64,000 nucleotides of DNA from a virus. A program made the translations under genes and the position numbers. The first letter of the stretch is position 1. The number at the start of each line of letters is the position of its first letter. Below, one piece after another: positions 1 through 32,528 of this stretch. Location: the IMG/VR virus record IMGVR_UViG_3300045988_108212, positions 32,001 through 96,000 of that record; one strand, 5' to 3'. Below the pieces are notes generated by a model. That model searched no databases and had not been told where the DNA came from. It saw nothing but the letters and a program-made list of their open reading frames with translations.

Positions 1-2005
1 TGGTTCATCAACAACGAGTCTTAATTCAATGGTCAAAAAATGGACAGATGGGGCAGTAAGCGATACAACGCAGATCAATGGTGGATGGATTAAAGCAAAT
101 ACTATTACTGCTAGTAAGATAGCATTAGCTGACTTTACAAACTATTCTCAGCTAACCAGAGATACAGCAGCTACATATGGATTTGCAGTGACTGATGATA
201 CAGATGGTACATGGTTTAGTACGCAAGGCATTAGGCGAGATCAGTTTATTTCTGAAATATTCCCTTGCAATGGCGGTGAAAGTTATCTTATCGAATATGA
301 TATTTCCACCAATGCAAAGGGAGCAAACAATTCAACCGACACTAAAAATTATATTGGTGTAGCCATTGGTGTTTATGGATATACAGGAACTGTTGGCTCT
401 AATGGACTTCCAAACAAAGCAACAAATATTTGGTATGCGACTAGAGTAACTGGATCTGAAGCTGCTGCAGTAACACACGTAAAAACTACAATTACTACTT
501 CTACAGCTACAAAACAATTCCGAATATTTTTACAATCAAACGGATACTATTTTGAAGGCACAACAAAGATTAGAAACCTATCTGTTCGTAGAATGTATGG
601 CGGAACACTTATTGTAGATGGCTCTATCACAGCAGACAAAATTGCAACAGATGCCATTAAATCTCGTAACTACATCTCTTCTGGTGGTACACAAGGGTCA
701 TTTTTGAATCTGAGCGATGGTAGTTTTCAGAGTCCTAATTTAAGTTGGGATGCAAATGGTAATTTGATTGCCAAGAATGCGAACCTGAGTGGTGAGATTA
801 CAGCTACGAATGGTAGTATTGCGGGATGGACTATAATTAGCAATAAGATGTATACGACAGGATCTGGTAAATATACAGGTATTGGTAAGTACGGAAGTGC
901 TTATGCTTTCTGGGCGGGTGCAACAAGCAATGATAACGGAAATAGTGCCGTATTTAAGGTTGGTCACACTGGTAAATTAACTGCCACAGATGCAGATATT
1001 ACGGGAACAATTACTGCTACGAATGGTAAGATTGGTCGCTATGATATTACGTCAACATATCTGATGACAAACAGCGGAAGTAATGCATCTGGTATTGGTG
1101 GAAATCAGGCTTTCTGGGCTGGTGCTGAAGATAGCAATTCTGCTCCTTTTAGAGTTGGGTATGATGGAGTTTTGTGGGCAGAAAATGCCGCCATAAGAGG
1201 AAGTATCGAAACTGGAAATTTAGGAGATGAAGGAGATACTGTCTCTATAATAAACGGACATATAGGAATACAAGGTACGTCAAATAATGTTGAAATTTAT
1301 TCAACTGGATTTAAATTTGGTATTGATGGGGACTATTATTTAATGTCAGTTTCAGAAGGAGTCAAATGCTATCGAAATTTGTATGCAACAGATTTTGTAG
1401 CGGACGGTTGGCTTTATTGCTCAGAAGTGCATAGTTCTGGTGCAGTTGTCATTGGTGCTGATAGCGAATCTTTTTATTGGGCGCATGGGTACCAAATTGC
1501 ACGTGGAACATCGTGGGGAGGTGTATGTGTCGGTGATGATAGTCAACAATTGCGACTTTATGGTTCGTCTATCTGGGCATCACACAGCATTTCTACTTCA
1601 GACGAAAATCTTAAAGAAAACTTTACTACTCTTGATCAATATGAAAATTTCTATATGAATCTAAATCCTATAGGGTTCAATTACATTGGAGATTATGATG
1701 GTAAGAAAACTCATTTTGGATTTGGTGCTCATAAAACAGAAGACGTCTTAGAATCCGAGGGTTATGATGCTGATAAATTTGCTGTAGTAACACATAGACC
1801 TCTTGTACAGGAAGATATTGAAAAGCGTTTTGGCAAAGATGTTGAGGTCGATATTGAAACGGAATATGGTGTTTCTTATACAGAATTTATTGCATTAAAT
1901 ACCCATATGATTCAAAAGACACGAAGAGAACTTACCAAAGTCAAACAAGAAAAAGCCGACCTAGAAGTTCGATTACAAGCAATCGAAGCAAAGCTTGGAC
2001 TTTAA
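1..2005 (+). CDS. Tail fibre / receptor-binding protein (probably 5'-partial) with C-terminal intramolecular-chaperone (peptidase S74-like) domain
   Basis: Frame is open from nt 2 up to the first Met at 29, so the gene likely starts left of the window. Repeated G.ITA.NG.I..W.I shaft motifs. C-terminus HSISTSDENLKENF..NPIGFNY..HFGFGAHKTE followed by a coiled coil, the pattern of auto-cleaving fibre chaperone domains. Confidence 0.7.
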   Translation, partial: GSSTTSLNSMVKKWTDGAVSDTTQINGGWIKANTITASKIALADFTNYSQLTRDTAATYGFAVTDDTDGTWFSTQGIRRDQFISEIFPCNGGESYLIEYDISTNAKGANNSTDTKNYIGVAIGVYGYTGTVGSNGLPNKATNIWYATRVTGSEAAAVTHVKTTITTSTATKQFRIFLQSNGYYFEGTTKIRNLSVRRMYGGTLIVDGSITADKIATDAIKSRNYISSGGTQGSFLNLSDGSFQSPNLSWDANGNLIAKNANLSGEITATNGSIAGWTIISNKMYTTGSGKYTGIGKYGSAYAFWAGATSNDNGNSAVFKVGHTGKLTATDADITGTITATNGKIGRYDITSTYLMTNSGSNASGIGGNQAFWAGAEDSNSAPFRVGYDGVLWAENAAIRGSIETGNLGDEGDTVSIINGHIGIQGTSNNVEIYSTGFKFGIDGDYYLMSVSEGVKCYRNLYATDFVADGWLYCSEVHSSGAVVIGADSESFYWAHGYQIARGTSWGGVCVGDDSQQLRLYGSSIWASHSISTSDENLKENFTTLDQYENFYMNLNPIGFNYIGDYDGKKTHFGFGAHKTEDVLESEGYDADKFAVVTHRPLVQEDIEKRFGKDVEVDIETEYGVSYTEFIALNTHMIQKTRRELTKVKQEKADLEVRLQAIEAKLGL

Positions 2006-2050
2006 GAACGGATAAAAACAACTAAATAAAACATAAATTTGATCGTACAT

Positions 2051-2077
2051 AGAGCAGTTTTCGGACTGCTCTTTTTG
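2051..2077 (+). terminator. Rho-independent terminator after tail fibre gene
   Basis: AGAGCAGT (2051-2058) / ACTGCTCT (2065-2072) 8-bp stem followed by TTTTT. Confidence 0.7.
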
Positions 2078-2111
2078 TATGCTCAAAAACAGAAAGAAAG
2101 GTGAAATACAT

Positions 2112-2942
2112 ATGGTATACACAGTTAAATTAGATAGCTCTGACGACAAAGTATTTAATCTTATGCAGTTTAATTCTATGACTTTTGACATGGAATGTAA
2201 ACTTGTCGTTTGCACAGATGATCTAAAAACGGTTAAATCAGCATTTACAAACTTTAAAACATTAGACATTTACAGAGATGATGTGCAGATTGCAACTTAC
2301 ACATGCTTTAACAATTATAAAGAAATCTCTTTACAACAGGGATTATATAACAACACAAATGGAGAATGGGAAGATGCACTGATTGTATCTCTTACAAGAG
2401 CGAATATTGTAGAACAAGTGCAACGACTTGATGAAAAAGTTAATCAAATCGTAGATATTAATACATTAACTCTTGATGAATACAAGAACTATTTACAGGA
2501 GAAAAACAAAGCTGCTCTTGCTGAGTTCTTAGCAGATCAGAGCGTAGAATTCAATGGTAAGCCTTATGGAGTATCTGAAGAAGATCAGAATGAAATGGCT
2601 CTGAACTTTATGCAATATCAAGCTCTTACTACTGCTGGTCAGCAAGTAACTCTTGAATGGCATAGTAAGAAGAGTGCGTGTGAAACATTCACTGCTGAGG
2701 AATTTGTGCAATTAACAGCAATGATCAAAGCATTTATCTATCCTTATTTCCAACAGATGAATGTAACAAAAGCGCAAATTTTCAGTTCTACTAGCAAAGA
2801 AGAATTGGACAAGATTGAAATTAAATATGAAGTAATTCCTGTGCAGTCAACAGAACCTACTACTCCTTCAGAGGGAAAAGATTTAGTTACGACTGATAAG
2901 ACGGATGAGACAGGAAAAGATTCAGTTACGACTGAAGAATAA
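2112..2942 (+). CDS. Hypothetical tail-associated protein
   Basis: ORF 2079-2942. The internal ATG at 2112 is preceded by AAAGGTGA. It sits directly after the fibre gene. No motif I can name with confidence. Confidence 0.55.
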   Translation: MVYTVKLDSSDDKVFNLMQFNSMTFDMECKLVVCTDDLKTVKSAFTNFKTLDIYRDDVQIATYTCFNNYKEISLQQGLYNNTNGEWEDALIVSLTRANIVEQVQRLDEKVNQIVDINTLTLDEYKNYLQEKNKAALAEFLADQSVEFNGKPYGVSEEDQNEMALNFMQYQALTTAGQQVTLEWHSKKSACETFTAEEFVQLTAMIKAFIYPYFQQMNVTKAQIFSSTSKEELDKIEIKYEVIPVQSTEPTTPSEGKDLVTTDKTDETGKDSVTTEE

Positions 2943-2973
2943 TTAGTTTAACAGAGAAAAGGAGAAAATTAAT

Positions 2974-3396
2974 ATGGAAATGACAAATATGCAGGCAGAT
3001 ATGATCTTAGGACAGTTAAATACAATTTATGCATTCCTTATGAAAAACAGTGAATTAGTACCATGTACTTTAAGTGCTGGGCTTGCCAAGAATATTAGAA
3101 AGATTCAAGAAGAGCTGAAGGAATATTTTGAAGAAAAACGCAAACTCTTACAGAAATATGATATCACTACTGATGCCCAGATCAATAGCACAGAGAACGG
3201 ACAGAAATTCTTAGCAGAGTTTAATCCTTTAAGCATGGAAAACTCAGGGGTTGAGTTCCATAAGATGAGAATGACTTTTAGCGAAGTTTGTGATATTATT
3301 GAGAATTGTCAAGGAATTCTTGAGGGAGACATCATGATTTTACAGCTTATTTGTAAAGATGAAAGTGAGAACGAAGATCAAAAAGAAGGTGAATAA
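2974..3396 (+). CDS. Hypothetical protein
   Basis: SD AAAGGAGAAAA upstream of the ATG. Its stop TAA abuts the next ATG. Confidence 0.55.
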   Translation: MEMTNMQADMILGQLNTIYAFLMKNSELVPCTLSAGLAKNIRKIQEELKEYFEEKRKLLQKYDITTDAQINSTENGQKFLAEFNPLSMENSGVEFHKMRMTFSEVCDIIENCQGILEGDIMILQLICKDESENEDQKEGE

Positions 3397-3825
3397 ATGT
3401 TGCATGTAAAGAAATCATGTAAATATCTTATCTTATTCCTTATTGGAGCATTTGCTTATTGTGGAATTGAAATCATCTGGCGAGGATACACACATTGGAC
3501 AATGGGAATGTTAGGCGGTACTTGCTTCATTCTTATTGGGCTGATAAATAACAGTCGCTTCTTCTACCATCTTATGCCATTTCGTGAGCAGATGGTTCTC
3601 GGAGGATTGATTGTTACTGTAATGGAATTCATAGCAGGTTGTATTTTAAATTTATGGTTAGGTTTAGGCATTTGGGATTACTCTCAGATGCCTTTTAATC
3701 TGTGTGGGCAGATTTGCTTACCTTATACAATTTTATGGATTTTACTGAGTGCAGTATGCATTGTTGTAGATGATTCGCTGAGATATTTATTATTTGGAGA
3801 AGAAAAACCAGAATATGTTTGGTAA
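3397..3825 (+). CDS. Polytopic membrane protein (about 4 TM helices; resembles the DUF1113 / putative ABC-transporter type IV family)
   Basis: Hydrophobic segments LILFLIGAFAYCGIEIIW, GGTCFILIGLI, LGGLIVTVMEFIAGCIL, ILWILLSAVCIVV. Located in the lysis-cassette position. Confidence 0.5.
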   Translation: MLHVKKSCKYLILFLIGAFAYCGIEIIWRGYTHWTMGMLGGTCFILIGLINNSRFFYHLMPFREQMVLGGLIVTVMEFIAGCILNLWLGLGIWDYSQMPFNLCGQICLPYTILWILLSAVCIVVDDSLRYLLFGEEKPEYVW

Positions 3826-3868
3826 AGACTTAAAGGAGTGATTTTTATAAAATAATCGAGGTAATTAC

Positions 3869-4480
3869 ATGATAGAAAATTGGAATATTATAATTAATTT
3901 TTTATCTCAACATGGGGCTGCATTGACAGTGTTTGTCTTTGCGGTTCTTTTGTTTGCAGATAAAATTTTTGATGTCACTTCCAAATTAAACGAAAAGTTT
4001 GGTTTTGAGACACGTGCTTCGTTAGAAAAGAAACATCAAAAAGAAGTGATTGAACAACAACGCTTAATGATCGATAAGCATACAGAAACTTTGGATAAAC
4101 TAACACAGATTTTGAGCAATCAGAATAAAGATATTCAAGTTATCAAAGACATGATGAGAGAGCAAGCCGCATTATTAACAGACCAAAAGGTAGGCATGGA
4201 ACGACTATTTGCACATACAGCTGAACTGGCTAAAAAATTAGATGATGCGTGCGCAATGGACGTTGCTTTATCTGAAGGTGTTGCTGCAATGCTAAGAGAT
4301 AGAATCAAACAAGCCCACAGATATTACAAGCAAAAAGGTTGTATTTCCCCTACGGGGCTTGAAAACATCAATGCTATTTATAAGGTATACCATGACCAAT
4401 TACATCAAAATGGCGTTGGAGAAAAAATGTATAACGAAATTAAAGCATTGCCTATTAAGGATGAAGAGTCATTCTTGTAG
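3869..4480 (+). CDS. Membrane-anchored coiled-coil protein
   Basis: SD GAGGT upstream. N-terminal TM segment AALTVFVFAVLLFA followed by heptad-rich sequence. Confidence 0.5.
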   Translation: MIENWNIIINFLSQHGAALTVFVFAVLLFADKIFDVTSKLNEKFGFETRASLEKKHQKEVIEQQRLMIDKHTETLDKLTQILSNQNKDIQVIKDMMREQAALLTDQKVGMERLFAHTAELAKKLDDACAMDVALSEGVAAMLRDRIKQAHRYYKQKGCISPTGLENINAIYKVYHDQLHQNGVGEKMYNEIKALPIKDEESFL

Positions 4481-4510
4481 GTCTTTTTTATTGCAAAGGA
4501 GGATTGCATT

Positions 4511-4924
4511 ATGAACAAATTTAAAGAATTTTTGGCAAGTATTAATTGGAGTGAAGTTAAACCACATACTGTTGTAAGTCTGATTTTACAGGTGTTGGCG
4601 TGGATCAATATGGGATTAACTGCGGCAGGCAAACCAGTGATTGACGTACATGAAGATGTAATTAACCAAGTAGTTGGTATTGCTTTTGTAGTTGGAACAT
4701 CTCTGTATGGAGATTGGAAAAATCATAGTTTTACATGGACAGCTCAGTTTGCAGATGAAATTGCTTACGCTCTGAGAGACGGTAGATTAACTCTTGAAGA
4801 GGCTGAGGAAATCAAGAATAAGATTGGTCAAAAAGATGTGATCGTAAAAGTTGATAAGGATTTATTTGAAAAAGAATTAGATGATGTTACTGAAGGCAAA
4901 GAATCTGATGACATTGTTGGATAA
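4511..4924 (+). CDS. Putative holin (phi LC3 / XhlB-like family)
   Basis: SD AAGGAGG upstream. Two hydrophobic segments and the motif GDWKNHSFTWTAQ, which resembles the W-KNN-sFT hallmark of that holin family. Lies just upstream of the endolysin. Confidence 0.55.
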   Translation: MNKFKEFLASINWSEVKPHTVVSLILQVLAWINMGLTAAGKPVIDVHEDVINQVVGIAFVVGTSLYGDWKNHSFTWTAQFADEIAYALRDGRLTLEEAEEIKNKIGQKDVIVKVDKDLFEKELDDVTEGKESDDIVG

Positions 4925-4964
4925 TTTGCTAAGTGAGTAATTAGTTATTGAATAATTAGTTATT

Positions 4965-4996
4965 GAGCAGTTGCTGTTATGGTGACTGCTCTTTTT
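4965..4996 (+). terminator. Rho-independent terminator between holin and endolysin
   Basis: GAGCAGT (4965-4971) / ACTGCTC (4985-4991) followed by TTTTT. Same stem sequence as the terminator at 2051. Confidence 0.6.
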
Positions 4997-5022
4997 AGAT
5001 AAAAGAAAGGAGCCTGATATTT

Positions 5023-5754
5023 ATGGCATTAAAATTTAAAACAAGAACGGCAAAGAGCGTGAGCTACGGAAGTAAACGTAGCACGAGTTCTATTAAGTTT
5101 ATTGTAATCCATTTCACAGGGAATGACGGAGATTCCGCTAAGAACAATGCAGATTATTTTGCCACTGGTAATACGAGAGCTGCTGGGGCACACTATTTCA
5201 TTGATGAGGGAGATATTGTATGGAAATCTGTTCCTGTTAATCGAGTAGCATGGGCAGTTGGAGGATTTGTTACAAATGCTAATGGAGGTGCAAAATTTTA
5301 TAAGATTTGTACTAATGCAAACAGTCTAAGCATTGAAATGGCTAATTCTGTAGGAAGTGTTCCTAAGGCTACATATAAAAATGCTGTTAGTCTAACTAAA
5401 AAACTTATGAAAAAATACAATATTCCTGCCAGTCATGTTCTAAGGCACAATGATGTATCGGGAAAACAGTGCCCAGAACCTTGGTGTGGAAAAAATAATA
5501 AACAGTGGGCTAAATTCAAAGCAGACATTTCTGGTTCTACAGTAGTAAAACCAAAAGCATCTTCTAAGTTTAAATCATACAAAGTAAAAGTAACTGCTTC
5601 TGCTCTTAAGGTGCGTAAATCTCCATCTACGACGGCTGCTATTGCCAAAGATGCCTATAAGAAAGGCACAACAGTTACAATCAAAGCTGTTAAGAATGGT
5701 TGGGGTAAAACTAAAGATGGTTGGATTAAACTGTCTTATACAAAGAAATGTTAA
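5023..5754 (+). CDS. Endolysin: N-acetylmuramoyl-L-alanine amidase (Amidase_2/PGRP type) with C-terminal SH3b-like wall-binding domain
   Basis: IVIHFTGNDGDSAKNNADYF..AGAHYFIDEGDIV..NRVAWAVGG..SIEM..VLRHNDVSGKQCP amidase motifs. C-terminal YKVKVTASALKVRKSPS..GWGKTKDGWIKLSY. Confidence 0.85.
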   Translation: MALKFKTRTAKSVSYGSKRSTSSIKFIVIHFTGNDGDSAKNNADYFATGNTRAAGAHYFIDEGDIVWKSVPVNRVAWAVGGFVTNANGGAKFYKICTNANSLSIEMANSVGSVPKATYKNAVSLTKKLMKKYNIPASHVLRHNDVSGKQCPEPWCGKNNKQWAKFKADISGSTVVKPKASSKFKSYKVKVTASALKVRKSPSTTAAIAKDAYKKGTTVTIKAVKNGWGKTKDGWIKLSYTKKC

Positions 5755-5876
5755 GGGATATGAAAAGATATAAGAAACAGTTATGATTGATTTGACGATC
5801 AGTCGGTATTTTCTTTATTAGTTTTCTTTGTCAGTGATAAAGAATTGTTACTCTCTGCTGCGGAGAGGGTAAATAT

Positions 5877-5912
5877 GAGCAGAATAAACTAGGCTCTGCC
5901 TCTATTTTTTTT
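5877..5912 (+). terminator. Probable terminator after endolysin
   Basis: GAGCAGA / TCTGC(C)TC stem with one bulge, followed by TATTTTTTTT. Confidence 0.45.
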
Positions 5913-5923
5913 ATCAAAAAGTG

Positions 5924-5951
5924 TTGTATTTGTTTTGAATTTGTGTATAAT
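5924..5951 (+). promoter_or_regulatory. Sigma-70-like promoter for the repeat RNA / toxin-like cassette
   Basis: -35 TTGTAT (5924-5929), 16-nt spacer, -10 TATAAT (5946-5951). Confidence 0.6.
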
Positions 5952-6029
5952 GAAAGTAGGAATAGTAATATTCTCGATGAAAGAGCATCGTTAAAAGTTG
6001 TGCTGCAAGTGGAGCAGGGTAATTTTCCA

Positions 6030-6060
6030 CAACGAAAAGATATTTTAACTGGATATCACG
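6030..6060 (+). repeat. Direct repeat copy 1: CAACGAAAAGATATTTTAACTGGATATCACG
   Basis: Exact 31-nt match to 6114-6144. Contains an internal GATAT/ATATC hairpin. Confidence 0.95.
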
Positions 6061-6113
6061 TCTTGCGACTAGGAGTAAAGTCGTAGTCCATGCAGGGGAC
6101 TTAAGGATTTCTG

Positions 6114-6144
6114 CAACGAAAAGATATTTTAACTGGATATCACG
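6114..6144 (+). repeat. Direct repeat copy 2: CAACGAAAAGATATTTTAACTGGATATCACG
   Basis: Exact 31-nt match to 6030-6060, with an 84-nt period. The flanks are only loosely similar. Confidence 0.95.
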
Positions 6145-6182
6145 GCTGACAACCAGCAGAAAACTCTAATAAAGAATTATCG

Positions 6183-6212
6183 AAGAGTGTGGCTTCTGTC
6201 CCACTCTTTTTT
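6183..6212 (+). terminator. Rho-independent terminator immediately upstream of the toxin-like ORF
   Basis: AAGAGTG(T)GG / CCCACTCTT, 9 bp with one bulge, 7-nt loop, T-run to 6212. It lies 15 nt before the ATG at 6228. Confidence 0.75.
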
Positions 6213-6227
6213 ACGTATGAGGTAAAT

Positions 6228-6854
6228 ATGGCATCAAAAACACAAAAGAAAAATAAAATACGACAAGATATTATAGAGGCAGCGTCCATGTATGAACAAT
6301 ACCTAGCTGGCCAAGCATTTTTATATGTATATGGAAATGAATATTTTGAAGTGATGTTCCCAGTCAATAGATTTTTGCATCTTGCTGGCGTAGAAACTAG
6401 ATTGTTTGCAAAAAAATTTTATAAAAATGCCAGAGAAAAAACATTAACTACACAACAGTTTTATTTCTCTCCAAGACATCCTTTTGAAGTCTCTAAAAAG
6501 AAACTATCATGTCTCAAAAGATTATATGAATTAACAAACACGAAGGTTCGTATTCTTAGGAATATGGAAACAGCCAGTGTTGTTTATAAAGTTGGCATAT
6601 CGAACTTAGAGTTTACTTTGTGCTTAACAGAGAACAGAGATTCTAATGGAGAAAAAATTAATGAATACTTCTTGCCAATGTCGTTACGAGCAGGAAGAAA
6701 TTCAACGAAAAATGGTGATGATTATGGAGAAGTTGACTTCATTTTTCAAAAAGACGCAAGTCTTGGAAAGTATACAACTCTTCTGGTAAAGAATGAAAAC
6801 AAAGAGATTCCAGAATGTGTTCATCATTTGTTGCAAGGGAATTTATTACAATAA
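6228..6854 (+). CDS. Putative toxin-like protein (208 aa; possible BECR/PBECR-type RNase fold, unverified)
   Basis: SD GAGGT is 4 nt before the ATG at 6228. The track start at 6189 would span the terminator. Motif EVMFPVNRFLHLAGVE. Basic protein in a moron position. Confidence 0.6.
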   Translation: MASKTQKKNKIRQDIIEAASMYEQYLAGQAFLYVYGNEYFEVMFPVNRFLHLAGVETRLFAKKFYKNAREKTLTTQQFYFSPRHPFEVSKKKLSCLKRLYELTNTKVRILRNMETASVVYKVGISNLEFTLCLTENRDSNGEKINEYFLPMSLRAGRNSTKNGDDYGEVDFIFQKDASLGKYTTLLVKNENKEIPECVHHLLQGNLLQ

Positions 6855-6867
6855 GAATAAAAAATTA

Positions 6868-6906
6868 AGGGTACATCAGATTAATTTCTGGTGTACCCTA
6901 TTTTTT
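6868..6906. terminator. Bidirectional terminator shared by convergent cassettes
   Basis: AGGGTACA (6868-6875) / TGTACCCT (6892-6899), with an A-run before and a T-run after. Confidence 0.7.
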
Positions 6907-7147
6907 ACGATTTTTCTACTCTACACATATCATCTATTTCATGCTCAGACAAGTATAAAGGCATCCCACATTTATCATCGAAGAATGAAATGGTGTATTC
7001 TGTAGAATCAATTCTAGCTCCATATAAGACTGTTTTCACAGGCGTCTGAGAGTCAATTTCTGTGAGCTGTACTGTGTCACCTATATGGAATAATCCGCAC
7101 TCTGTATTGAGTGTCTGAGTGCTTTCGTTGTATTCGTATATTCTCAT
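6905..7147 (-). CDS. Hypothetical protein (80 aa)
   Basis: Second gene of a two-gene leftward cassette. SD AAGGAGGTG upstream of the ATG. Confidence 0.55.
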   Translation of the reverse strand: MRIYEYNESTQTLNTECGLFHIGDTVQLTEIDSQTPVKTVLYGARIDSTEYTISFFDDKCGMPLYLSEHEIDDMCRVEKS

Positions 7148-7158
7148 TATGCACCTCC

Positions 7159-7491
7159 TTACCTATTTAAGTAACTCTGTGATCGTAATAAGTCTGCATA
7201 TTCTCCGCAGAGATACCATGTTCCAGATGATGGAATGTATTTTAGTATCTTTGTCTTTGTAGAGATGTTAAATCGTTCTAACACTTCTATTCTGCTTTTG
7301 TAATATTCTACTTCACGTTCTTGCCTTGCTGAGTTGGTTTCTTTTCTAGTACCCTGTAGTAGTAATTCTCTGACGTGGAATTTTTGAAGCTTACCATAAG
7401 AATCTAACATAGACATCCAAATGTCTGGTGGTGTGTCTCCTGAAATGTTGATCTGTTTGGTAGCTTTTGGAATGTTTGTTGTATTGTACAT
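7159..7491 (-). CDS. Hypothetical protein (110 aa)
   Basis: SD AAGAGGTGA upstream of the ATG. Directly downstream of a strong promoter. Confidence 0.55.
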   Translation of the reverse strand: MYNTTNIPKATKQINISGDTPPDIWMSMLDSYGKLQKFHVRELLLQGTRKETNSARQEREVEYYKSRIEVLERFNISTKTKILKYIPSSGTWYLCGEYADLLRSQSYLNR

Positions 7492-10365: not shown

Positions 10366-10773
10366 CTATTTTAAATATGAAGAGAATACTAATTTCTCTT
10401 TATCTTTATCATCAACTGTTACATATCCGTGTACATTAGGCGGATGCCCTGACCAACTGATGTAGATTTTATAGTAATATCTCGTACAATCAACATATTT
10501 ACGTGTCACAATACAGACATATCCTTTATTCATGAAGTCTTCTAATACTGCAATACAAGAATCAAGTGACTTGTCAGTATCGCAAGACATTGATTGTGTC
10601 TTACGGTATGTTTCTGTTCTACCATTCATCTGTGCAGTTTCCCATATATCATTTACTAAGTCGTCATATAAGTCATCAAATATTTTACTTAATTGTGCAT
10701 TAGACTGCTGCTGTGAATACTCTTTCATATCCACAGCATTGATTAATCCTTTTGTTTGTGCAAAATAATTCAT
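10366..10773 (-). CDS. Hypothetical protein
   Basis: ORF abuts the dUTPase gene (TAA then ATG), co-directional. Confidence 0.55.
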   Translation of the reverse strand: MNYFAQTKGLINAVDMKEYSQQQSNAQLSKIFDDLYDDLVNDIWETAQMNGRTETYRKTQSMSCDTDKSLDSCIAVLEDFMNKGYVCIVTRKYVDCTRYYYKIYISWSGHPPNVHGYVTVDDKDKEKLVFSSYLK

Positions 10774-11295
10774 TTATTTACCTGTACTTCCAATTCCGCC
10801 AGTTCTTTCCTCAGTAACTTCTTCTCTATCAGCAACCCCATAGAGAGTAAATACACCTTGACAAAACGCTTCTCCTTTTTTAATTTTTAATGTATTTGGA
10901 CTACAATTCTTAATTTTTACAAAGATATGACCTTCGTTATCTGCAAAATAATAATCTTCATCAATAACGCCCGTTCCATTGCCAATCCATGCATCAGCTT
11001 TAATGCCAAGGCTACTTCTAATAAAAATAAACAATGTCCATCCTCTGAGGATCTTACATCTCATTCCTGTTGGAATAATGATTGCATCTCCTGATCTTAC
11101 AACAAAATCCGCTGGTGCAATAAAGTCATGTCCTGCTGATCCCTTTGTTGCTCTGGCAGGATATTTTAAACTACCATAAATTGATTCTTCTGGATATTTG
11201 TGAAATTTCTCTTCCCAGTCCTGTATGAACTGGTCAAACGATACTTTCTCAAACTCTGCAACTTTCATTAATCCGCTTTCTGTTAATAATCCCAT
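10774..11295 (-). CDS. dut: dUTP diphosphatase (trimeric dUTPase)
   Basis: GSAGHDFIAP, IPTGM, RSSLG, NGTGVIDEDYY, GEAFCQGVF and ERTGGIGSTGK motifs. The ATG at 11295 has GGAAAGGAAA upstream. The track offers a TTG start at 11343. Confidence 0.9.
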   Translation of the reverse strand: MGLLTESGLMKVAEFEKVSFDQFIQDWEEKFHKYPEESIYGSLKYPARATKGSAGHDFIAPADFVVRSGDAIIIPTGMRCKILRGWTLFIFIRSSLGIKADAWIGNGTGVIDEDYYFADNEGHIFVKIKNCSPNTLKIKKGEAFCQGVFTLYGVADREEVTEERTGGIGSTGK

Positions 11296-11367
11296 ATATG
11301 TATTTCCTTTCCATTTTCTTTGTGCAATTTTCACAAAATTCAATATTTCGTTATCATGTTATGTAAA

Positions 11368-11775
11368 CTATCGTTTACAAAGCATCAGAGGTAATCCGAC
11401 TTCGTTATAATAAGAATCCTCAAAAGTCATTTCTGGTTCGTCTTTGTACTGTTCTTTTAATTTTTCAACCAACAGATCTTTCTGTTTTTTCACTTCATCT
11501 TCAGTGCCATGCACAATTAAAGTTACATTGCCGTCATATACACCGTCATTAAATGTTTCAACTTCAATCATGTATAACTGACGATCTGTGTTAAGACTTG
11601 ACTTTTTAGCTGCCAGATATAGATAATCTTTTGGCAATTTATATTTCTTGAGTAGCTTGTCCACATCTTTAATGAAATCAAGTTTGTGTTTTTCTTCTTT
11701 AATCTGCTTCTGTAAACTTGCGTTTCCTACGTTTCTTTTATCGTTTTCAGTCATCATTACATTATTTGTACTCAT
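11368..11775 (-). CDS. Hypothetical protein
   Basis: ATGA overlap with the upstream gene. Confidence 0.55.
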   Translation of the reverse strand: MSTNNVMMTENDKRNVGNASLQKQIKEEKHKLDFIKDVDKLLKKYKLPKDYLYLAAKKSSLNTDRQLYMIEVETFNDGVYDGNVTLIVHGTEDEVKKQKDLLVEKLKEQYKDEPEMTFEDSYYNEVGLPLMLCKR

Positions 11776-31967: not shown

Positions 31968-32528
31968 TTAGTTTTCAGTTGCTGTTTCTGACGATTCCTC
32001 TACGACCTCAGCAGAATCATCATCTACATATTCAATATCTTCTTCTTTTACTTTTGTTGCAGGGTCGAGTCTTTCATAATCCTCTTCTGTGGCTGGCTCT
32101 GTTTTAACAGTTCCACATTTTTCGCAATAAGTTGTCCAATGATATCCATTCTCTTCATCATATGCAATTGTTTTTTCTGCCCACACATGATCACAGGTTT
32201 CATCTGCGTCATCTGGGTATTCTGGTTCTGTATAATCTGCATCGTCTGTATCGTCTGCGGTAGAATTTTCAGTATTTTTTTCTTCTTCTGTTGTTGCCGA
32301 TACATCATTTGTTGTATCTTTAGAATCTTCTTTGACGGCATTTTTCTTATTATTTTTCTGCTCTGTTGTGTTCTTTGTAGTTTCTGTAGTTGACTTACCT
32401 TCTGTTGTTGCAGAAACCTGTTTATCAGTGTTATTATTTAGTGTATCTGCATAAATAGTATATGCTGAAACGCATCCTACTGCTGTTAACATTAATGCTC
32501 CAGCGATTAATAATTTTTTAATTCTCAT
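31968..32528 (-). CDS. Acidic lipoprotein with C-terminal Cys/His cluster
   Basis: The start at 32528 (MRIKKLLIAGALMLTAVGC) has SD AAAGGAG and a lipobox-like AVGC. T/E/D-rich linker. CDHVW..YCEKCG. Confidence 0.55.
   Translation of the reverse strand: MRIKKLLIAGALMLTAVGCVSAYTIYADTLNNNTDKQVSATTEGKSTTETTKNTTEQKNNKKNAVKEDSKDTTNDVSATTEEEKNTENSTADDTDDADYTEPEYPDDADETCDHVWAEKTIAYDEENGYHWTTYCEKCGTVKTEPATEEDYERLDPATKVKEEDIEYVDDDSAEVVEESSETATEN

Follow-up and report, generated by a model that had tools for sequence, protein, structure and literature searches.

A 64,000-nucleotide (nt) window of viral DNA, positions 32,001 to 96,000 of the IMG/VR record IMGVR_UViG_3300045988_108212 (the window being this whole 64-kb stretch, with all coordinates counted from its first letter), carries at 5924–6854 a compact cassette in which a promoter, a conserved and elaborately structured RNA, a terminator, a Shine-Dalgarno (SD) sequence and an open reading frame (ORF) for a PBECR4 protein follow one another, a layout that is conserved among homologues. 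This anatomy is accompanied by conserved RNA structure, by a tight genetic coupling of RNA and ORF, by an asymmetric loss in which the ORF disappears and the RNA is kept, and by co-divergence of the ORF with two hairpins of the RNA. On balance, we consider the cassette to be probably a type III-like toxin–antitoxin (TA) or abortive-infection module, the RNA of which would bind and neutralise PBECR4. Its features are listed below, with compensatory pairs counted in an alignment of 50 non-redundant RNA homologues (A2).

5924–5951, + strand: promoter read from the sequence, with a -35 box TTGTAT at 5924–5929, a 16-nt spacer and a perfect -10 box TATAAT at 5946–5951
5958–6212, + strand: predicted non-coding transcript of ~255 nt, comprising structured core and terminator
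5959–5964 with 5969–5974, + strand: hairpin P1, GGAAUA/UAUUCU, 6 of 6 pairs compensatory
5975–5979 with 5986–5990, + strand: hairpin P2, CGAUG/CAUCG, closing a conserved AAGAG-type loop, 3 of 5 pairs compensatory
5991–6031, + strand: invariant single-stranded AAAAGUUG, then module 1
6003–6006 with 6014–6017, + strand: module 1 H-type pseudoknot, stem S1, CUGC/GCAG, mostly invariant, 1 compensatory pair
6008–6013 with 6026–6031, + strand: module 1 H-type pseudoknot, stem S2, GUGGA/UCCAC, 4 of 6 pairs compensatory
6030–6060, + strand: 31-nt repeat, copy 1, containing hairpin B1 at 6039–6057 with a stem of 6–7 base pairs (bp) and the loop UUAACUG
6061–6063 with 6071–6073, + strand: linker pseudoknot, stem S1, UCU/AGG, 3 of 3 pairs compensatory
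6065–6069 with 6080–6084, + strand: linker pseudoknot, stem S2, GCGAC/GUCGU, 4 of 5 pairs compensatory
6085–6089 with 6097–6101, + strand: module 2 H-type pseudoknot, stem S1, AGUCC/GGACU, invariant in A2
6090–6095 with 6111–6116, + strand: module 2 H-type pseudoknot, stem S2, UGCAG/CUGCA, 5 of 6 pairs compensatory
6114–6144, + strand: 31-nt repeat, copy 2, containing hairpin B2 at 6123–6141, identical to B1 in the window phage
6143–6167, + strand: invariant 3' element GGCUGACAACCAGCAGAAAACUCU, unvarying in 50 of 50 sequences except for one G/U position
6182–6212, + strand: intrinsic terminator between RNA and ORF, with an 8+3 bp hairpin at 6182–6209 and U6 at 6207–6212, -13.1 kcal/mol (ViennaRNA)
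6219–6854, + strand: SD sequence and PBECR4 ORF of 208 amino acids (aa), with GAGGT at 6219–6223, ATG at 6228 and TAA at 6852–6854
6868–6899, + strand: strong terminator closing the cassette, with a 13-bp stem followed by a T-run, -22.3 kcal/mol

An initial annotation, made from the letters of this stretch alone, had described a good promoter, a strong terminator and a 208-aa ORF opened by GAGGT and ATG. The promoter boxes, the terminator hairpin with its U6 tract, and the ORF with its start signals all lie where it had placed them, with only the strengths overstated: the -35 box agrees with TTGACA at just 3 of 6 positions, and the terminator is of moderate strength, with an internal mismatch in its stem. 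A consensus scanner listed neither element, missing the promoter because its -35 box is weak and the terminator because of this mismatch. Both are supported by conservation, with the -10 box and the terminator recurring at fixed positions across dozens of homologous loci; the distance from the -10 box to the first RNA helix is conserved, and a terminator hairpin occupies the equivalent position in homologues, frequently with a weaker U-tract. Transcription is predicted to start at ~5958. The RNA gene lies upstream of the ORF on the same strand, with one promoter for both and a terminator between them, as in type III TA systems. The 15 nt from terminator to start codon are too few for a promoter, and the ORF would therefore be expressed via read-through only.

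Alignment of the DNA upstream of homologous ORFs reveals that ~215 nt from the -10 box to the terminator are conserved as a whole, well beyond the 31-nt repeats, with a single nhmmer match of the RNA in the window, at 5954–6167. The structure of A2, derived with RNAalifold and with pseudoknots completed by hand, comprises 62 pairs in 12 helices, with 96.4% of cells paired compared with 35–48% when the partners are slid, and compensatory changes in 38 of the 62 pairs; the observed values were reached by none of 500 shuffles. These patterns indicate that the element is under selection as RNA. It is non-coding, and a 47-aa ORF at 5943–6086 is not conserved, with a stop in that frame in 47 of 49 homologues. 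Within the fold, 6 of the 7 stem pairs of hairpin B1 show compensatory changes, positions 6068 and 6081 of the linker pseudoknot co-vary between the window and locus L130, and stem S1 of module 2, invariant in A2, shows compensatory changes in the divergent loci L070 and L084 (read from the alignment). Judged from this alignment, the RNA forms one large multi-pseudoknot fold built from two homologous pseudoknot-plus-hairpin modules. Searching Rfam 15 (E ≤ 10) with 5958–6215 gave no family match of any weight, the top one being L20_leader (14.8 bits, E = 9.4).

The invariant 3' element could form a hairpin GCUG/CAGC (6145–6148 with 6154–6157), or pair through AACU at 6162–6165 with AGUU at 5996–5999, however these pairings lack covariation support and have alternatives, because the positions do not vary. 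For the same reason no choice was possible between the closing-helix candidates GUUG/CAAC and GCUG/CAGC, which were set aside. The only signal is a non-canonical correlation of columns 58 and 211 of A2 (window 6001 and 6149), with A at 58 if and only if G is at 211 (3 of 3: L050, L074, and L082), and may mean that the 5' AAAAGUUGN and the 3' GGCUGNCAACC meet in the tertiary structure.

The exact 31-mer CAACGAAAAGATATTTTAACTGGATATCACG stands at 6030–6060 and again at 6114–6144, 84 nt apart; sequence search and folding agree with the initial annotation on both copies and on the hairpin in each (GAUAUUU/GGAUAUC, 7 bp with two G.U pairs), and no other match with up to 3 mismatches was found in the 64-kb window (0 expected by chance). 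Across the family the 7-nt hairpin-B loop has the consensus UUNACUG, with position 3 the most variable and U at position 2 in 50 of 50 sequences in B1 and 45 of 50 in B2. In most relatives the stems of B1 and B2 differ from each other, and the exact identity of the 31-mers is peculiar to the sub-clade of the window, where it reflects concerted evolution: within each RNA of this sub-clade B1 equals B2, with the loops UUAACUG, ACAAAUG, AAAAAUG, and GCAACUG distinguishing the alleles. Orphan RNAs of the L102 type carry one hairpin from each of two alleles. The 84-nt period thus reflects an ancient duplication of a pseudoknot-plus-hairpin module, common to the whole RNA family. The initial annotation had rightly suspected an old 84-nt duplication, but its picture of a 31-nt core held identical since that event gives way to concerted evolution within the sub-clade. 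Its type III-like layout likewise stands, but not the simple ToxI-like tandem repeat: there is no tandem array of near-identical short repeats, since the modules have diverged outside the 31-nt core, and both 84-nt modules are embedded in a larger fold with unique 5' and 3' parts. A transfer RNA (tRNA) in the window was also considered and dropped, with none found by ARAGORN; the likeness of hairpin B to an anticodon loop is a lead only.

The ORF belongs to PBECR4 (Pfam PF18813, E = 8.1e-26, 92 bits against a cut-off of 27), with residues 14–186 aligned to profile positions 1–183 of 188. This is its sole Pfam match, with none to ToxN/AbiQ, CptN, TenpN, or Abi_2, consistent with the earlier remark that no ToxN/AbiQ motif is visible, and at the level of the profile it bears out the resemblance to Barnase-EndoU-ColicinE5/D-RelE (BECR) nucleases that the initial annotation had suggested. 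The ORF falls in PHROG 18856, the function of which is not known. Homologues number 315 with the window protein as query and 487 with a distant relative as query, nearly all of them stand-alone proteins of ~205–215 aa from Lachnospiraceae and other Clostridia, with conserved residues H51, H84, S152, and R154. An AlphaFold2 (AF2) model built from 48 diverse homologues has a predicted local distance difference test (pLDDT) score of 90.3, a first run on a shallow 20-sequence alignment having been discarded (pLDDT 53); among BFVD entries, two unnamed phage proteins alone have the predicted fold. The BECR ribonuclease (RNase) assemblage, which includes PBECR4, is in wide use as toxins, and the ORF is predicted to encode a metal-independent RNase, making it a candidate toxin. 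Solo PBECR versions in phages were noted by Iyer, Burroughs, Anand, de Souza and Aravind in 2017, who predicted RNase activity and proposed that PBECR domains attack specific host RNAs (PMC5512222). That study regards PBECR domains as parts of MuF, portal or polyvalent fusion proteins that act as injected effectors, with no RNA partner described, whereas the PBECR4 proteins considered here are stand-alone, always have a dedicated RNA upstream, and often occupy non-phage chromosomal sites.

The RNA and the protein are tightly coupled. The initial annotation had proposed searching homologous ORFs for upstream repeats followed by a terminator, and the RNA is indeed present in all 74 non-redundant protein-defined loci having enough upstream DNA, with the sole apparent exception, L087, carrying a type B RNA; among the loci examined, no intact PBECR4 ORF without the RNA was found. 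The type B RNA is a sister form preceding a PBECR4 clade ~40% identical to the window protein (L087:660-935, L267:2225-2503, L285, L287, and L289; alignment A4), with the same layout and pseudoknot modules in a different sequence and with compensatory changes. Its promoter is TTGACA-17-TATAAT and its closing helix CACUGG/CCAGUG; it has two pseudoknot modules and a terminator, and no Rfam family matches it.

Loss of the two partners is asymmetric. A protein-blind search of public collections, with the exact 24-nt invariant 3' element as pattern, gave matches in 50 stretches of viral DNA and in at least 120 stretches from metagenomes. In the viral contigs a PBECR4 match lies ~60–100 nt downstream of the motif in 40 of 50 loci, the other ten including one without DNA past the motif and L140, with a distant PBECR4 ~290 nt downstream. 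Among non-redundant RNA-defined metagenome loci the ORF is intact in 24, truncated in 25 and absent in 36. The RNA still forms a median of 93.5% of its pairs in ORF-less loci, with single-module RNAs occurring only alongside truncated ORFs, and the terminator, SD sequence and first PBECR4 codons persist in many ORF-less loci (L148, L166, L197/199/214, and L220). Additionally, L159 and L175 are clean promoter–RNA–terminator units without an ORF.

Several individual loci add to this picture. At 10440–11760 of the oriented copy of L161, a complete RNA–PBECR4 unit is followed by a second promoter, RNA and terminator with no ORF, and L140 has an ORF-less type A RNA with, after it, a second promoter and a further leader that precede the distant PBECR4. 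L077-L080, L085, L091, and L094 are chromosomal remnants (in Anaerostipes, [Ruminococcus] faecis, Blautia, and others) in which PBECR4 is truncated or interrupted by stops; the RNA has collapsed to one module, apparently via recombination between hairpins B1 and B2, in L078-L080, L085, L091, and L094, and L077 still has the hairpin motif in two copies spaced by 84 nt. In L186:2550-4017 (metagenome contig JAEIGA010099311.1), a 5'-truncated RNA without a PBECR4 ORF retains hairpins B1 and B2, the pseudoknots of the linker and of module 2, and the 3' element, and is followed after 7 nt by a tRNA array (Thr-UGU, Leu-UAA, Ser-GCU, and Lys-UUU), which might, as a single case, hint at a link with tRNA-targeting nucleases.

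The window lineage shows the ORF and the hairpins changing together. Nucleotide identity between the window and L130 is 96% for the endolysin, 99% for the promoter, 93% for the terminator, 88% for the RNA core and 71% for the ORF (62% at the amino-acid level), with the flanks 93–99% identical while the ORF and the 31-nt hairpins diverge together. The two 31-mers hold 20 of the 25 differences in the RNA core, and both hairpins always co-change. The hairpins thus evolve in concert with the protein, and hairpin B may accordingly be read as a protein-recognition element. L128 and L102, two syntenic sister phages, match the window as far as 6167 and again from 6857, with 6168–6856 (terminator and ORF) swapped for ~42 nt and the RNA kept.

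The window cassette belongs to a gut-bacterial prophage and has lysis genes on one side and two small ORFs, then the integrase, on the other, its neighbours including a tail-fibre chaperone, an SPP1-type holin and an Amidase_2 endolysin. The position between endolysin and integrase had been called a classical moron slot, which describes the phage lineage of the window but not most homologues. Homologues of the window endolysin, holin and integrase around other loci are largely limited to this lineage, and the only matches to these three genes in the 80 species-representative genomes were distant integrases at 5 loci; because these phage neighbours are so confined, the slot is not a general property of the cassette. 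Most homologues lie between housekeeping genes or beside insertion sequence (IS) elements, with chromosomal sites including tyrS/MFS, spoIVB/spo0A, NAD synthase/S1, and PBP/PRPP synthetase, and others beside IS200/IS605. Every such locus has at least ~290 nt of uncalled DNA 5' of the PBECR4 start (at the tyrS locus, counting from the shorter gene call). A scatter over housekeeping-gene, IS-adjacent and prophage sites is typical of TA modules, and we count it in favour of a TA module here.

In one widespread lineage (L273-L276, ~2000–5700), IS200/IS605 genes flank the cassette on both sides, either Y1_Tnp with OrfB/TnpB or an RRXRR-HNH IscB-like gene, which suggests hitch-hiking or insertion hot spots. 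Further genes of the window include a membrane protein at 3397–3825 with an ABC_trans_CmpB match (PF06541), in the tail-fibre/lysis region upstream of the SPP1-type holin. The two small ORFs between cassette and integrase, at 6905–7147 (- strand) and 7159–7491 (- strand), encode 80 and 110 aa, have no Pfam or PHROG match, and are kept in sister phages with or without PBECR4. The terminator downstream of the ORF shares 48 nt (6861–6907, 92% identity) with MT835469.1, a 176-kb human-faecal phage; a blastn search of INPHARED with 5760–6900 gave no other match and was uninformative.

Transcription of the RNA, toxicity of PBECR4, direct binding, neutralisation and any anti-phage role are inferred, with indirect support for toxicity and for neutralisation through binding coming from the asymmetric loss of the ORF and from its co-divergence with the hairpins. 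One promoter would drive a ~255-nt highly structured RNA ending at the intrinsic terminator, with minority read-through transcripts yielding PBECR4, the predicted metal-independent RNase. The abundant RNA would bind PBECR4 directly and hold it inactive, most likely recognising it in an allele-specific manner through the two hairpin-B elements, which a double-pseudoknot scaffold would display and which might each serve one protomer of a PBECR4 dimer. Should RNA synthesis stop or the RNA be degraded, through phage takeover or loss of the element, free PBECR4 would cut cellular RNA and the cell would arrest. On this view, related phages and chromosomes with an RNA-only copy would gain immunity or an anti-addiction decoy from it. 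Escape phages reportedly use a pseudo-ToxI, a case ascribed to Blower et al. in 2012, and the RNA-only copies could act likewise.

The closest experimentally studied analogue is AbiF_Cd/RCd22 of the phi027 prophage of C. difficile, in which the toxin is neutralised by direct RNA binding, in cis and in trans, and RCd22 also lowers abiF transcription in a riboswitch-like manner (Saunier et al. 2025, doi 10.1101/2025.04.15.648962, PMC12373285). Like the window cassette, AbiF/RCd22 consists of a promoter (SigA-type), a non-coding RNA with two hairpin motifs, a terminator and a promoterless toxin gene reached via read-through, and it adjoins the lysis genes of a prophage (clostridial in that case). 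In contrast, its toxin is an Abi_2/AbiD/F protein, the candidate here being PBECR4, and RCd22 is ~100–130 nt long and belongs to the Rfam abiF motif RF03085, whereas the window RNA is about twice as long, contains pseudoknot modules, and gives no match to RF03085 at E ≤ 10.

ToxIN, CptIN, and TenpIN also place an RNA, a terminator and an endoribonuclease toxin (predicted in our case) under one promoter, with direct repeats and pseudoknots in the RNA, and their phage-defence and addiction logic is applied to the window cassette by analogy. Their toxins belong to the ToxN, CptN, and TenpN families, for which the window ORF has no Pfam match. The antitoxin repeats of these systems are near-identical and short, 36–45 nt, unlike the two diverged 84-nt modules that lie within one larger conserved fold here. 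Type III repeats are described as cut by the toxin into units forming cyclic complexes (PMC8860590). AvcID of Vibrio, in which a small RNA antitoxin controls a deoxycytidylate deaminase toxin that is not ToxN-like (PMC10511110), resembles the window cassette as a type III-style pair with a non-ToxN toxin, its RNA and host range being unrelated. RNA antitoxins with non-ToxN toxins are known from AvcID and AbiF, so the principle is not new, contrary to the novelty claimed for it in the initial annotation, and what would be new is the toxin family and the unusually elaborate RNA.

No description of an RNA partner for PBECR4 was found in the literature, and the RNA may still be an unnamed entry in large gut-microbiome RNA catalogues, which were covered in part. 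Thousands of unnamed gut RNA candidates are given in one such catalogue (Fremin & Bhatt 2021, PMC8040213). In the searched portion of its supplement the single mention of PBECR4 is in supplementary file 1, where one candidate gut/oral RNA, mainly from Streptococcus and Lactococcus, has ToxN, TenpN, CptN, PBECR3 (16), and PBECR4 (15) among its neighbouring domains; some PBECR genes may therefore adjoin classical type III loci.

Several points weigh against a type III-like module. In size and in conservation the RNA far exceeds the type III antitoxins known so far, and its two diverged modules stand in place of a processed array of identical short repeats. PADLOC has no model matching the ORF. 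A Foldseek search of the Protein Data Bank (PDB) with the AF2 model yielded no similar BECR structure (best E = 0.26, template modelling (TM) score < 0.2), and a hidden Markov model profile search of PDB sequences found no relative; the ORF is therefore assigned as an RNase from its Pfam profile match and from the work of Iyer et al. 2017. The asymmetry of loss comes in part from sampling, since the RNA search needed an intact 24-nt motif, and some ORF-less loci share a single deletion event. Finally, the invariant 3' ACUCU could pair with the terminator, at the GGAGU or AGAGU of its 5' arm, and the possible closing helix AGUU/AACU resembles a riboswitch P1, making a cis-regulatory role conceivable.

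The strongest form of such a role, in which the RNA is a cis-acting leader only, riboswitch-like or protein-responsive, and sets read-through into PBECR4 without neutralising it, seems to us rather unlikely. It would account for the classic attenuation order of aptamer-like domain, terminator and gene, for conservation and multi-pseudoknot complexity at the level of riboswitches, and for the two possible pairings just named, that of ACUCU with the terminator arm amounting to 5 bp, and RCd22 offers a precedent in its effect on abiF transcription (PMC12373285). However, intact RNAs without a downstream gene occur in many loci (L128 and L102, L159 and L175, and the second copies in L161 and L140), the candidate antiterminator of 4–5 bp faces a stem of ~11–12 bp and is invariant, with no covariation, and the co-divergence of the hairpins with the protein allele fits protein recognition better than a small-molecule ligand. 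Less probable again is a reading in which PBECR4 requires the RNA, as cofactor, guide or substrate, to form an active ribonucleoprotein effector and is not inhibited by it, with hairpin loops that could select target RNAs such as tRNA anticodon loops. PBECR4 is never seen without the RNA, the 7-nt hairpin-B loops, with U at position 2 and a variable position 3, resemble an anticodon loop or displayed triplet and vary between protein alleles, and PBECR domains have been proposed to hit specific host RNAs (PMC5512222). Yet frequent loss or truncation of the ORF with the RNA kept would be unexpected of an RNA serving the protein alone, and a long variable guide-like segment is absent from the RNA, the variable part being 1–3 loop nt. 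We know of no precedent for an RNA-guided BECR nuclease, which we also count against this explanation.

Were the RNA to function on its own, for example as a new self-cleaving ribozyme or as a small RNA acting in trans, its linkage to PBECR4 would be secondary. This would suit the nested pseudoknots and many invariant nucleotides, the many stand-alone copies, and the truncated copy fused to a tRNA array in L186. We regard it as improbable, as the RNA lies immediately upstream of every intact PBECR4 of the clade, always arranged alike, the stand-alone copies that we read through are mostly deletion remnants keeping the terminator, SD sequence and first PBECR4 codons, and no known ribozyme family matches in Rfam 15. 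That the 31-mers are DNA operators for a phage repressor, an outcome the initial annotation had named as refuting its proposal, or a chance or recent duplication without RNA function, is barely credible: each copy does hold an inverted repeat just 3' of the promoter, but the window contains no more copies, the element also occurs at non-phage chromosomal sites, and the operator reading is effectively refuted because the stems covary across the 50 homologues, with pairing collapsing when partners are slid.

A more speculative reading, which we put forward tentatively and consider doubtful as a whole, joins elements of the above into a new class of RNA–protein conflict module. Here the double-pseudoknot scaffold RNA would display two anticodon-stem-loop-like hairpins (7-nt loop UUNACUG) to a BECR-type nuclease that possibly targets tRNAs; the hairpins would be specific to each allele and exchangeable, and would serve the nuclease as pseudo-substrates or as specificity elements, with RNA-only or mixed-hairpin copies (L102) acting as mutual decoys in an RNA-based immunity network among gut Lachnospiraceae prophages.

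The covariation support for this RNA is on a par with that of accepted Rfam families. If the type III-like reading is true, the type III-like systems with RNA antitoxins would gain a fourth or fifth family of toxins, PBECR4, so far known from sequence analysis alone, would gain its first functional context, and a large and abundant class of structured RNA of human-gut Firmicutes and their phages would be catalogued. Furthermore, the natural allele series, with one scaffold carrying varied loops and toxins, together with the RNA-only phages, would offer a system for studying RNA–protein specificity and phage–prophage immunity.

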